Source: a virus
Taxonomy: Duplodnaviria > Heunggongvirae > Uroviricota > Caudoviricetes
Direction: 5' to 3' (one strand)
Length of the DNA: 22,932 nucleotides
IMG/VR virus record: IMGVR_UViG_2690316152_000015
Coordinates: 1 to 22,932 of that record
Shown piece by piece: positions 14,044-22,932 of this stretch. Within the stretch, counting starts at the first letter, position 1. Every line of letters begins with the position of its first letter. The translations under genes were made by a program, and so were the position numbers. The notes below the pieces were generated by a model. It was not told the origin of the DNA. It ran no database searches and saw nothing but the letters and a program-made list of their open reading frames with translations.

Positions 14044-15948
14044 TTAGAACGATGTTACCCAGCTACGGCCTCTATTTGGACGTCTGGCGATGTTTTGACG
14101 TTGTGGTCGTGTGATTGGCTTACTTTCTTCTATTTGCTCGTCAGATTGCGTTTCAGGAGCTTTTACGGGTTCTTCTGGTTCGCGGTTCAAACTATCTTTG
14201 ATGGCTTCCAGTTTTTCCCATGACATTTTATTAAGCACATGACGATAACTAGCCACGGCATATGTAAGACAGTCCAATCCCTCGTTACGTTGCTGTCCAA
14301 CTTTTACCCAACGTGTCGTATTACCCTGCCGTTTCAACTGTTCAGATAACAATTGTTCGCAGTAGTCATCAGGAACGTCACCAATCTGGAAGACAGTATG
14401 CGGATCGCTGTCTCTCAAGTTCCGGTTAATCATTTCACGGATCATCGTCTTAAGATTGTTTACGCCCAGAATTTTAAGGGTAAAACCGCCCGTTCTTGTG
14501 TCCTTGACCGGAAGGATTGGAGCATCAACATTGCTTGCACCCTTAATGGCGCATAGGTTTTGCCACCTAGTGCAGAAGCGATAGATCACGTTTGTAGCTC
14601 GTCCGTTCGATGAGTCCACGAAAGCAGATAGCATCGGGATTCGTTGACCGGATCGGGTATAGAATTTAGCTTTCAGGAAGTTGTAAAGCTGGTCATATGC
14701 TGGTGATTCGTGGCGTTCGCAGTTCACATCATAGAATGATCGGTGATCAACTACGCATATCCCCTTACGAGAGATACCCAGCAAGGTAGATTCAAGACGG
14801 TCTTTTTGCTGGTCAACACCACTAACCAGAGCAAGTACATCATCAGGAATATTGTCTAGACTAATATCAGTTTTCAGCGTTTCCAGTTCGTCGGCTGTGC
14901 GGTCTTCGTTAAGATCATCGAAGGTTTCACCGAGGACTGTATTGTAGAACGTTGCCAGTGACATATTCGCGTAGCTATCAGCAAAGTCCACCACACACGC
15001 ACGGATAGAACTAAACGGAGACATAAGGCGGTTAGCATGAAAACCGATTACTTCCGCGTTTGGTTCGGTTGCTACCCATTCACCTTGAGCAACAGCACGT
15101 AGGCGAGCCCCTTCTGTCCAATCGGTTTCACATGACGGGCAACGGTAAACGGCTGTGTCAGGATTCGGCAGTGATTTACCATTGATTACATGCCAATCAA
15201 AGAAAACTCTACTCCATTCCATTACGTGTTTGTGTCCGCAATGCTGGCAAGGAACATAGTATTTCCTCTTATCCGAGAGTTCCCATTGTTGGTTTATCGC
15301 CCCATCACGAGCGGTTGGAGTGGAAGCAATTATGATCCTTGCGTCATCCCCGAAAGTGGTTGCGCGTTGTTCCGCTAGTTGGATCGGGTTCCCTTCGTCT
15401 GACTCATCAGCCGCATCAACTTCATCAAGAATAATCAAAGGGAGTGTTTTACCGCGAAGATGTGACGGACTATTCAACGACATGAAATACATGAATGATC
15501 CGTTACGAAGCTGAATAATCGATGAGTTGTTAACGGCATTGCGATCTGACTTGTCGGTGATCATCGCCTTTAATTCTGGGGTTGCCTCTAATACTGGCTT
15601 CACCTTACCCGCAATCCATGAGTTCAATTCTCGAACGTTTGCTTGCAAAACACCGATGTTAGTAGGGTTGCTGGCGATCCTGTGAAAGATAATACCGTTT
15701 AGCACAAGAGTTTTACCCAACTGCGCCGAGCACTTTAGAACAATTTTTCGCCTATCTTCGGTGATCGCGTCCATCATTCCACGTTGGAAGGGATGCAATT
15801 TAATTAGCGATCCGGCTTTAACACCATCGGTAGCAACTACATTAGCCTCTACCCATTCGCTAGGTTTCATGGCTTTAGGTGGGCGAATTGCCGCAGAGAT
15901 ATTTTTAAGAATCTTTTTTAATTTGGCCTTATTAGAAATCAGTTTCAT
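14044..15948 (-). CDS. terL: Terminase large subunit, GpA (lambda A)-like
   Basis: 634-aa ORF; deviant Walker A (CSAQLGKT), Walker B (LIILDEVD), zinc-finger-like CxxC pairs and C-terminal nuclease region as in lambda gpA; first gene of the minus-strand late operon. Confidence 0.9.
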   Translation of the reverse strand: MKLISNKAKLKKILKNISAAIRPPKAMKPSEWVEANVVATDGVKAGSLIKLHPFQRGMMDAITEDRRKIVLKCSAQLGKTLVLNGIIFHRIASNPTNIGVLQANVRELNSWIAGKVKPVLEATPELKAMITDKSDRNAVNNSSIIQLRNGSFMYFMSLNSPSHLRGKTLPLIILDEVDAADESDEGNPIQLAEQRATTFGDDARIIIASTPTARDGAINQQWELSDKRKYYVPCQHCGHKHVMEWSRVFFDWHVINGKSLPNPDTAVYRCPSCETDWTEGARLRAVAQGEWVATEPNAEVIGFHANRLMSPFSSIRACVVDFADSYANMSLATFYNTVLGETFDDLNEDRTADELETLKTDISLDNIPDDVLALVSGVDQQKDRLESTLLGISRKGICVVDHRSFYDVNCERHESPAYDQLYNFLKAKFYTRSGQRIPMLSAFVDSSNGRATNVIYRFCTRWQNLCAIKGASNVDAPILPVKDTRTGGFTLKILGVNNLKTMIREMINRNLRDSDPHTVFQIGDVPDDYCEQLLSEQLKRQGNTTRWVKVGQQRNEGLDCLTYAVASYRHVLNKMSWEKLEAIKDSLNREPEEPVKAPETQSDEQIEESKPITRPQRQNIARRPNRGRSWVTSF

Positions 15949-16984: not shown

Positions 16985-17800
16985 TTACAGTCCAAAGACT
17001 TCCAGAGAGCCAGCATTCTGGCGGATACGTTCAGCAGCTTTATTTTGAATCAGAATAGTGTTGTTCGGTTTAGGCAGATTCAGAGTTGCTTTCTGTTCTT
17101 CTTCCAGAACACCCAATTCAACCAGCACCGGAAGCACATCAACAGTAAACTCAAGCTGGTAATGAGCATTCATGCGGCAGAAAGACAGAGAAGAATCATT
17201 AGCAACATACCCACACGGCTTGTTATTTTCATCATAGACGCGCTCAATATATCCAGCAGTACGCAAGGCCGTCAGTGCTTCTTTAACCTTCGTAGCGCCC
17301 TTTTTAGCGCCTAACAGACGCGTCATTGAATGGCTATCTACAGACTTACGAACATGAAGTTCAATCAGCTTTTTATTTTCGCGAGTTTTCTTTAACGCCA
17401 GTTCGATCCAGTCGGTTTCTTCAAAGTCTGCATACGGGTTAACGGCTAAACGTTCCTGACGCAGTTTTTCATTTTCTTCTTTCAGTCGTTTCCATTCCTG
17501 AATAACAACCAGACGACGATTAACATCGTAACCAGTGACAAGAGTCAGCGTCATTTCTTCGTCTAAGTGATATTCGGTTTGTTCACGTCCACACTGGTCA
17601 AGATAGGTGCGCTCAAAACTGAGCACATCTAATTCCAGAGCATCGAGCATGGATTTAATATCACGTTTAACGTTTTTGTGTTCTTTTCCGGTAAATTCAG
17701 CGATCTGACGGGAAGACATGGTCAGCGGTTTGGTGTTATCAACAACCAGAGACACGGAAGCAGTTTTAACAGCAGTATTCATAACAGTAACAGTATTCAT
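16985..17800 (-). CDS. Rha-family phage regulatory protein or antirepressor
   Basis: 271-aa ORF; N-terminal SSRQIAEFTGKEHKNVKRDI matches the Rha-domain signature as I remember it; C-terminal region resembles antirepressor C-terminal domains. Confidence 0.75.
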   Translation of the reverse strand: MNTVTVMNTAVKTASVSLVVDNTKPLTMSSRQIAEFTGKEHKNVKRDIKSMLDALELDVLSFERTYLDQCGREQTEYHLDEEMTLTLVTGYDVNRRLVVIQEWKRLKEENEKLRQERLAVNPYADFEETDWIELALKKTRENKKLIELHVRKSVDSHSMTRLLGAKKGATKVKEALTALRTAGYIERVYDENNKPCGYVANDSSLSFCRMNAHYQLEFTVDVLPVLVELGVLEEEQKATLNLPKPNNTILIQNKAAERIRQNAGSLEVFGL

Positions 17801-21285: not shown

Positions 21286-21657
21286 ATGGCAACTTTAAAC
21301 GAAAAAGCATTGTCACGTAAAACTCTGAAAGAGAAAAACATGATTCTTTCTGAAACGCTAAAACAGACTAATGCTGAGTGTGAGTTCTTGACCATTAAAC
21401 TTTCACTTAAAGAGAAAGAATGTAAGGAACTAATTGAAATGAATCGTTCTCTTTTGGAAAAGATGGAACGGATTGAATCCTTCTATGATAGTTACGTGAA
21501 ACTTAGTGAAGACTTTAAAGCCATGCAAGAAGACTACAAGAAATCGTTGAGGGAACAGATTAAACTGCATGAAGAATTGAAGGGCTATCGTGAAAAGGCT
21601 GTTAAAGAAAAGAAAGTACAGAAGATGAAAAACAAAGGATTGCGGCTTGTTGCATAA
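21286..21657 (+). CDS. Hypothetical coiled-coil protein
   Basis: 123-aa ORF with GGAG Shine-Dalgarno, 21 nt after the upstream stop; Lys/Glu-rich helical composition. Confidence 0.55.
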   Translation: MATLNEKALSRKTLKEKNMILSETLKQTNAECEFLTIKLSLKEKECKELIEMNRSLLEKMERIESFYDSYVKLSEDFKAMQEDYKKSLREQIKLHEELKGYREKAVKEKKVQKMKNKGLRLVA

Positions 21658-21664
21658 TAAAAAA

Positions 21665-21692
21665 GGGAGTCCCATTTAAGAGACTCCCTTGA
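21665..21692. terminator. Stem-loop terminator at the end of the plus-strand gene pair
   Basis: GGGAGUC-10 nt loop-GACUCCC; A-run upstream gives a U-tract on the minus strand. Confidence 0.5.
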
Positions 21693-21761: not shown

Positions 21762-21795
21762 AAGCCAGAAAAATAACCGCCTCTTTCGAGGCGGG
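21762..21795 (-). terminator. Intrinsic terminator for the small-peptide transcription unit
   Basis: Minus-strand hairpin CCGCCUC-GAAAGA-GGCGG followed by UUAUUUUUCUGGCUUU. Confidence 0.5.
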
Positions 21796-21953
21796 AGGAT
21801 TAATACTCAATCTATACTTGTTATGTTTTTATGATGTATAGATCACTGACTATGAAAACACTGTACTGGAGTGTGTTTTATGGCTTTTAATCGGGAACTC
21901 TCTTTCAAAAGCTCCCTGTTAATAACCATGTAGGAGAAAGGCAGATTACAATA

Positions 21954-22127
21954 TTATTTAGTGTCTGATTTACAGCAGCAAAAAAGAATAAACAAAAAGA
22001 AGCATACCCAGCCGTAAGGCGTACCGATTAGAAATTTGAAAAACACCACCAGCGATATAAAAATTAATTTAACACCAGCGACGATAGTCAAAAACAGCAG
22101 AGTAGCGAAATAGACAAAAAGATCCAT
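21954..22127 (-). CDS. Small hydrophobic membrane peptide (57 aa), not in the supplied track
   Basis: ATG at 22127 preceded by AAGAGGATTATCT; MDLFVYFATLLFLTIVAGVKLIFISLVVFFKFLIGTPYGWVCFFLFILFCCCKSDTK; two predicted hydrophobic helices. Confidence 0.45.
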   Translation of the reverse strand: MDLFVYFATLLFLTIVAGVKLIFISLVVFFKFLIGTPYGWVCFFLFILFCCCKSDTK

Positions 22128-22180
22128 AGATAATCCTCTTTGAAAACGACCATCATCTATAGTTCAATTCATCGATTTAA

Positions 22181-22282
22181 TTAATGATACTTGAAAGCGT
22201 TACACACAGCAGAAATGCCAATATGTGCAAGTGAATATACGATAGTTAATCCTACAGCCAGATAAATCAAAAATTCAACCAT
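22181..22282 (-). CDS. Small hydrophobic peptide (33 aa), not in the supplied track
   Basis: ATG at 22282 preceded by GAGGATTTACCT; MVEFLIYLAVGLTIVYSLAHIGISAVCNAFKYH; same Shine-Dalgarno style as the 57-aa ORF. Confidence 0.35.
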   Translation of the reverse strand: MVEFLIYLAVGLTIVYSLAHIGISAVCNAFKYH

Positions 22283-22299
22283 AGGTAAATCCTCAAATA

Positions 22300-22331
22300 A
22301 GAAAAAGGTTAGCGGGGGGTGATTCCCCCCG
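22300..22331 (-). terminator. Intrinsic terminator downstream of the Nu1-like gene
   Basis: CGGGGGG-UGAUU-CCCCCCG hairpin followed on the minus strand by UAACCUUUUUC. Confidence 0.55.
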
Positions 22332-22380
22332 TAGACGTTGACCAACTCAACATCTTTCATACATTTATTTATAACGCGTT

Positions 22381-22932
22381 TTAAGACACATCAAATTCAT
22401 CGTCTTCTTCTGGTTCTTGTTCCGGTTCATCCATTAATGGTAATTCTTCTTCCTCGTCTTCTCCTAAATCCGCATTTTCGAACAAGTCCCCTACTTCGTT
22501 TAAACGACGCTCGATGATCTCCCTTAGCTTATTCTTCAATGTTTTCTGATCGGTGGCAGATTCGAGAATTTCTAAAGCGTCGATTGTGGCGATCTGCAAA
22601 ATAGTCTGTTTCACCTTTCCGCAATATTCCGCTAGTTCCTGTTCTACATAACCGACCGGAATCAGGAGATTCATCGCTTCCTGGTTCTCTCGTTCGGCTG
22701 CATCCGCGAGTGCTCTTTCCCGGCGTAATTTCTCGACATCTATTTGTTCTTTGATAGAAGTTTCTTTGAGCGGATTAATGATGTTCTTCAAGACCCATTC
22801 TGTCCCCTCTTTGGCTGGCACGCGTCGTGTATTGGTATTAAATGGCATTCCTCGTTCTTGCCATTTCTTAGCGGCGTTAATTGTATAGCCGTATAAGCGG
22901 GAAATTTCTGTAAGGGTTAATTCTTCTTTCAT
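22381..22932 (-). CDS. Nu1-like terminase small subunit (winged-HTH DNA-binding N-terminus); start coincides with the window edge
   Basis: N-terminus LTLTEISRLYGYTINAAKKWQERGMPF parallels lambda Nu1 (LADIFGASIRTIQNWQEQGMPV, from memory); shared EKLRRE segment; acidic C-terminal tail; located about 6.4 kb from the large terminase gene. Confidence 0.55.
   Translation of the reverse strand: MKEELTLTEISRLYGYTINAAKKWQERGMPFNTNTRRVPAKEGTEWVLKNIINPLKETSIKEQIDVEKLRRERALADAAERENQEAMNLLIPVGYVEQELAEYCGKVKQTILQIATIDALEILESATDQKTLKNKLREIIERRLNEVGDLFENADLGEDEEEELPLMDEPEQEPEEDDEFDVS

Follow-up and report, generated by a model that had tools for sequence, protein, structure and literature searches.

Two small genes for predicted membrane peptides in an exchangeable slot behind the terS-like gene of an Escherichia coli prophage

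T4 Imm and HK97 gp15 are phage inner-membrane proteins of less than 100 amino acids that consist almost wholly of transmembrane (TM) helices, lack an extended charged tail and differ strongly from one related phage to the next. Hydrophobic products of small size are also found among the Hok/Gef, Ldr, TisB and GhoT toxins, which have 30-60 aa and either one TM helix or two (GhoT: 57 aa, two TMs), and among the holins, represented by lambda S105 and P2 Y in class I and by S21 in class II. Lambdoid morons, which are built as promoter, gene and terminator, bring variable cargo between conserved flanks close to the prophage end.

The locus described here is part of a prophage sequence of 22,932 nt (IMG/VR record IMGVR_UViG_2690316152_000015, called the window in the following), in which two short open reading frames of 33 and 57 codons, ORF33 and ORF57, follow a terS-like gene. 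The pair is of a well-known kind, that of small hydrophobic accessory proteins of phages, and its unusual features are limited to the exchange between one-chain and two-chain cassettes and to the structured flanks. With T4 Imm and HK97 gp15 it shares the small size, the near all-TM-helix make-up, the lack of a long charged tail and the variability, whereas sequence or profile similarity is absent and the module here consists of two peptides. The likeness to holins comprises helix number and size, with three predicted helices in a single-chain allele of the same slot and a predicted two-helix hairpin in ORF57, as well as sequence diversity and a probable late transcript; the charged C-terminal domain, dual start, endolysin adjacency and family match of holins are all missing. 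Like lambdoid morons the locus combines variable cargo with conserved flanks and a terminator near the prophage end, but the interval from terS to ORF33 yielded no promoter, and each of the 37 slots read was occupied.

Two small genes under purifying selection

An earlier note on this DNA had pointed out a 33-aa and a 57-aa ORF, each preceded by a GAGGAT-type Shine-Dalgarno site, and both ORFs as well as both sites were found on the minus strand with the positions and spacers given in Table 1. The two ORFs are separated by 53 nt, which include the AGAGGAT of ORF57. ORF33 translates to MVEFLIYLAVGLTIVYSLAHIGISAVCNAFKYH, a peptide with one hydrophobic stretch, an acidic N-terminus and K/H residues at the C-terminus. 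ORF57 (MDLFVYF...CCCKSDTK) is predicted by AlphaFold2 to form a helical hairpin of residues 2-35 and 37-55 with a turn at GTPYG (mean pLDDT 81), in agreement with the two hydrophobic helices that had been proposed for it, and ends in a short, basic tail. The CCC of the proposed CCC-K tail is peculiar to the window, as SCC or, in one case, SCY stands in its place in 24/24 relatives. All C-terminal tails are 4-6 residues long (NAFKYH, KSDTK/KKDTK, and KQTK in the single-chain allele). Hydropathy and predicted helices give both peptides a membrane character, and from their charge distribution the positive-inside rule would place ORF33 as a single span with N-out/C-in topology and ORF57 as a helical hairpin with N-in/C-in topology. 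Together, the two peptides would contribute three inner-membrane helices and may form a complex.

Table 1. Features of the ORF33/ORF57 locus and of its prophage; positions refer to the window unless a related locus (L019) is named.
Feature	Position	Strand	Remarks
terS-like gene, 183 aa	22932..22381	-	full-length match to PHROG 57 (terminase small subunit), E=3.3e-15
Two tandem hairpins, terS stop to ORF33	22355..22333 and 22331..22313	-	conserved, one compensatory pair each
Shine-Dalgarno of ORF33, GAGGAT	22294..22289	-	GAGGA-to-ATG spacer 7 nt
ORF33 (33 codons)	22282..22181, stop included	-	predicted single-span hydrophobic peptide
Shine-Dalgarno of ORF57, AGAGGAT	22139..22133	-	GAGGA-to-ATG spacer 6 nt
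ORF57 (57 codons)	22127..21954, stop included	-	predicted two-helix hydrophobic peptide
Structured 3'UTR	21953..21795	-	common to all slot alleles, conserved; folding z = -5.96 vs shuffles
3'UTR hairpin	21880-21929, core 21893-21916	-	two covarying pairs in core
Invariant UUAAUCCUCCCG	21806..21795	-	just 5' of terminator; in 41/41 loci holding the region
Intrinsic terminator	21794..21767, stem 21794..21777 + U-run	-	7-bp stem, 6 GC pairs
Tape-measure-like gene	891-2642	-	abutted by transposase
Transposase ORF	1-888	+	GC 52% vs ~42% for prophage
M15-peptidase endolysin	L019:10658-11011		complete relative, opposite end of element from slot
92-aa TM/coiled-coil protein	L019:12282-12560		with the 56-aa protein, 1.1-1.3 kb upstream of endolysin
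56-aa TM protein	L019:12092-12262

For a comparative analysis, 41 related loci were gathered from RefSeq E. coli genomes and IMG/VR contigs, and 25 of them, counting the window, show the two-ORF layout. ORF57 is intact in all 25 and ORF33 in 24; the sole broken copy of either ORF is the ORF33 of locus L010 (E. coli EC42405), where a 1-nt deletion causes a frameshift after codon 17. Polymorphism in ORF33 amounts to 9 synonymous and 3 non-synonymous changes (pN/pS ~0.10, binomial P=2.4e-4), and in ORF57 to 15 synonymous and 13 non-synonymous changes (pN/pS ~0.25, binomial P=3.6e-4). When all six frames were compared, the proposed frame had the top synonymous fraction for each ORF, and changes show a third-position bias in exactly the frames of ORF33 and ORF57. 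The Shine-Dalgarno sites of both ORFs are invariant across the aligned two-ORF loci (group-1), and the GAGGAT of ORF33 is kept in every slot allele. Because both ORFs are intact in 24-25 of 25 loci and their polymorphism is mostly synonymous, we regard them as real coding genes, and judged by their patterns of substitution they are very probably translated and under purifying selection. The general reading of the earlier note, small membrane-peptide genes of a prophage, gains support from this conservation and selection as well as from the ribosome-binding sites and the predicted helices. That ORF33 and ORF57 should be product-less chance ORFs of an AT-rich spacer is exceedingly improbable, as they are indeed short and AT-rich and were left unannotated by the NCBI pipeline (PGAP) in the relatives examined, but have kept their reading frames over ~10% nucleotide divergence, show a synonymous excess confined to these frames, carry strong and conserved Shine-Dalgarno sites and vary less than the adjoining spacer.

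The ORF-finder listing contains a 59-aa reading of ORF33 (22360..22181). Relatives do not share its N-terminal extension, since 8 loci have the 33-aa start alone while the remaining loci carry differing extensions, and this lack of conservation identifies the 33-aa start as the true start of ORF33.

The description of both ORFs as unannotated applies to the RefSeq/PGAP records of relatives, whereas other sources call both hypothetical proteins. Annotation pipelines routinely miss small membrane proteins, and that of NCBI skipped both genes in every relative checked, despite the selection acting on them.

Neither ORF33 nor ORF57 matched any entry in Pfam, PHROGs, NCBIfam or PADLOC. In particular, none of the toxin families Hok/Gef, Ldr, TisB, Ibs, ShoB and GhoT/OrtT was matched in Pfam or NCBIfam even at E<=1, no holin family profile was matched in PHROG, Pfam or NCBIfam, and no superinfection exclusion or immunity protein (Imm, Sp, SieA, gp15) was matched in PHROG or PADLOC. 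Neither tblastn with the peptides against 50,697 phage records nor Foldseek against BFVD gave a match, and Rfam returned sub-threshold miRNA noise only. A word-indexed search of 5.8 billion proteins retrieved near-identical proteins only, of which all source-named ones are from E. coli, and on independent contigs the gene is always preceded by the same terS gene. When 1.84 billion cluster representatives were searched exhaustively with an HMMER profile, the peptides' own cluster was the only one returned. With terS as the query, a scan of GTDB genomes revealed no relatives in other species, and a search of IMG/VR found near-identical prophage contigs only. Literature searches on ycdX prophages, on terS-linked small membrane or exclusion proteins and on the peptide sequences yielded nothing relevant. 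As far as these collections reach, ORF33 and ORF57 are orphans restricted to this prophage lineage. The gene call is thus well supported by the coding evidence given above, and since no homolog of known function was found at any sensitivity used, we infer the function from context alone.

Structured flanks around an exchangeable slot

The stop codon of terS and the start of ORF33 are separated by 98 nt that consist largely of hairpins. A promoter scan called no sigma-70-like site in this interval (22283-22380), and promoter-like sites are no commoner across the region than in shuffled sequences. By eye, one weak TTGATG-15-TATAAA overlapping the terS stop can be recognized, which is not conserved in relatives. 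On the plus strand, no terminator was found in 21795-22330, and one weak promoter-like site lies within the ORFs (22036-22064, 9/12). As no promoter of their own was found for ORF33 and ORF57 and the gap is short and mostly occupied by hairpins, co-transcription with terS is likely, and terS, ORF33 and ORF57 probably form one transcript with the terS-like gene first. Transcription coming from terS would read through the leaky hairpin pair and stop at the downstream terminator, while each peptide would be translated from its own strong Shine-Dalgarno site.

The earlier note had described the two ORFs as bracketed by terminators. On the downstream side this description stands, as a stem with a U-run begins 160 nt past the ORF57 stop, following the conserved structured 3'UTR, and shows a compensatory change from C-G to U-A in relatives; in this respect the locus also resembles a moron. 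On the upstream side, by contrast, there is the tandem hairpin pair, for which the scan called no terminator. Its U-rich tract begins 6-7 nt past the second stem, and with this offset the pair is not a canonical terminator; it probably acts as a leaky terminator or as a stabiliser.

The 3'UTR contains an invariant anti-Shine-Dalgarno-like motif, UUAAUCCUC, which, like the UUAAUCCUCCCG next to the terminator, is complementary to the Shine-Dalgarno region of ORF57, GAGGAUUA. The duplex of this type with the ORF57 site is better than 96% of shuffles (P=0.04), compared with P=0.45 for the ORF33 site. In the full-length fold, pairing between Shine-Dalgarno and anti-Shine-Dalgarno sequences reaches an ensemble probability of ~0.23 at the ORF33 site and nothing at the ORF57 site. 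The 3'UTR could be the source of a 3'UTR-derived sRNA or exert translational control by folding back.

Between these flanks the content of the slot changes. The slot was read in 37 loci, of which 25 (including the window) carry the ORF33/ORF57 pair and 12 a single hydrophobic ORF of 92-94 aa. This single ORF replaces the stretch from the hairpins to the 3'UTR in about half of the related prophages. The single-chain protein (e.g. WP_000190126.1) is annotated by PGAP, almost wholly hydrophobic and present in at least three alleles whose mutual identity goes down to 40%. Structure prediction gives it three helices comprising residues 2-21, 26-64 and 66-92 (pLDDT 65). Both forms are bounded by the same hairpins and ribosome-binding region and by the same 3'UTR. 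The single-chain protein and the pair are alike in slot, strand, flanks, type of ribosome-binding site and three-helix layout, but differ in that one polypeptide takes the place of two and in that only the single chain is annotated by PGAP. The two forms are similar in architecture and not detectably homologous in sequence. As pair and single-chain form nevertheless share flanks and layout, we interpret the slot as a cassette site in which small inner-membrane modules can be exchanged. The locus also provides a clean natural case of non-homologous one-chain and two-chain membrane modules swapped between fixed, RNA-structured flanks.

Candidate functions and origin of the pair

Overall, the explanation that we tentatively favour is that of two real prophage genes that are co-transcribed with terS and encode an exchangeable inner-membrane module with a leaning towards exclusion. 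As to the function itself, an exclusion or immunity-type inner-membrane factor is our leading guess, a weak lean that the genomic context makes possible rather than probable. Like T4 Imm or HK97 gp15, such a module would act at the inner membrane, where its target would be phage DNA entering the cell or some other process of the envelope. This reading fits tiny all-helix proteins without charged domains as well as the swapping of non-homologous alleles near the prophage end. In addition, the cassette is intact in IS-disrupted or deleted elements, for example the window and the loci L001/L018, L002, L010 and L017, and has been retained in L001/L018 despite the loss of distal tail and lysis genes. 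It is this survival that makes us lean to a role in the lysogen, although it may be uninformative if the IS disruption is too recent. That no own promoter was found speaks against exclusion and against classical moron-type expression in the lysogen, and a lysis-related role would fit better if the terS promoter is a late one.

The holin-like function that the earlier note had listed was not confirmed and appears unlikely. According to this reading, the slot encodes a holin or a holin/antiholin pair that would build up in the inner membrane at a late stage of infection and trigger or time hole formation for a cytoplasmic endolysin, and ORF33, which provides TM1 alone, could regulate the two-helix hole former in trans. 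Both peptides are small proteins with at least one predicted TM helix, and terS, with which they are probably co-transcribed, is a late gene. In complete relatives (L019:10294-12560), the M15 endolysin lacks both a signal and a SAR sequence and none of its direct neighbours contains a TM segment, the slot is filled by non-homologous hydrophobic proteins in every locus read, a pattern that is also typical of holins, and the 94-aa allele matches class I holins in size and in number of helices. Against these points, the C-terminal tail is only 5-6 residues long (KSDTK / KQTK) and lacks a long charged domain, there is no dual-start motif, and no lysis family was matched in PHROG or Pfam. More than 20 kb separate the slot from the endolysin, which in complete relatives occupies the opposite end of the element, and the window contains no endolysin at all. 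A likelier-looking candidate is found nearer the endolysin, where a 92-aa protein with an N-terminal TM segment and a charged coiled coil is followed by a 56-aa TM protein. Finally, the cassette is kept in elements whose lysis module is gone.

Concerning the origin of the pair, it would be conceivable that the single-chain gene was split in the loop after helix 1 and acquired a new stop, spacer and ribosome-binding site. Slot, flanks and the final codons (..TK*) are common to both forms, the helix layout agrees (1+2 against 3, the middle helix being long in either form), and the N-termini look similar by eye (M..FL.YL.V). Fission is nevertheless improbable, since no test exceeded chance: BLASTP of the pair against the single-chain protein gave no match, and with an HMM of three divergent single-chain alleles composition-matched shuffles scored equally well or better in 2273/5000 cases for ORF33 and in 1464/5000 for ORF57. 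Codon-shuffle DNA alignment tests resulted in P values of ~0.5-1.0 (P>=0.48), while the positive control, L006 against L003, gave P=0. As for the TK* common to both forms, it falls within the conserved 3' flank and so marks a recombination boundary.

The pair might also be a natural two-chain form of a three-helix phage membrane effector, in which ORF33 would regulate ORF57 as pore or hairpin former in trans and the anti-Shine-Dalgarno motif of the 3'UTR would gate the ribosome-binding site of ORF57. This combination, which would amount to a split peptide pair of holin/antiholin or toxin/anti-toxin type, we consider distinctly improbable.

Of the functions named in the earlier note, a type I toxin is the least supported and very unlikely. 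Here, one or both peptides would be membrane-depolarising toxins of type I or GhoT-like kind, silenced by an antisense RNA or by fold-back of the mRNA. Their size and hydrophobicity would be suitable, with 33 aa and one predicted helix for ORF33 and 57 aa and two predicted helices for ORF57, the 3'UTR is long, conserved and strongly structured, and its invariant anti-Shine-Dalgarno-like motif is complementary to the ORF57 site with a duplex exceeding most shuffles. However, no known toxin family was matched even at the most permissive threshold, and the antitoxin RNA or GhoS-like partner of such systems is not evident. On the plus strand, no pair of antisense promoter and terminator was found: no terminator was detected in or beside the ORFs, the lone promoter-like site is weak, and such sites do not exceed shuffles in the region. 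Pairing of the Shine-Dalgarno and anti-Shine-Dalgarno sequences stays at or below the ensemble probability reported above for ORF33, whose duplex is at shuffle level. The genes are moreover arranged in tandem behind terS in an operon-like setting, not as an autonomous locus, and each genome has one copy of the element, whereas type I loci are often present in several. The probability remaining after the exclusion, lysis and type I readings falls to some other membrane role.

Should the exclusion-leaning reading or the lysis-related one apply, so that the cassette excludes phages or times lysis, the pair would represent a new orphan family in that class and a convenient system for a three-helix membrane unit made from one or two polypeptides.

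The prophage and its relatives

The region is contained in 64/5426 complete E. coli genomes (~1%) at 80-96% identity, in a single copy per genome. In annotated relatives it belongs to an element of ~37 kb with a large serine recombinase, which is inserted at ycdX in most genomes and at codB in strain 06-00048. Nucleotide searches of phages (50,697 records) and plasmids gave no match to the region, and the best phage match of the capsid is Escherichia phage DCP80 with 45% aa identity.

In the window, the minus strand carries genes for a lambda-gpA-type large terminase, a portal, a fused protease/major-capsid protein, a tail tube, a T4-like distal tail fibre with adhesin and a tape-measure protein. 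The terS-like gene has an additional weak match to Nu1 and is named 'terminase small subunit' by PGAP in some relatives. At the far end of the window, the transposase ORF differs from the prophage in GC content and abuts the tape-measure-like gene, and the prophage is probably IS-disrupted; several relatives likewise carry internal IS elements or deletions.

The terS-like gene (22381-22932, minus strand) and the gpA-type large terminase gene (14044-15948, minus strand) are 6.4 kb apart. Between them lie genes in mixed orientations, among them several orphans and a Rha/anti-repressor homolog (16985-17800), and none in this interval of the window could be recognised as a gene for a repressor or for replication. 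The slot lies ~1 kb from the prophage end in relatives, and a convergent plus-strand unit stops at 21657 with a terminator of its own at 21663-21690.

Upstream of terS and outside the window, 300 nt separate terS from a divergent 101-aa orphan ORF in one relative (L001:9284-9583). This stretch contains a GC-rich block within otherwise AT-rich DNA as well as a perfect TTGACA with a poor -10, and it may hold a cos site and the terS promoter.
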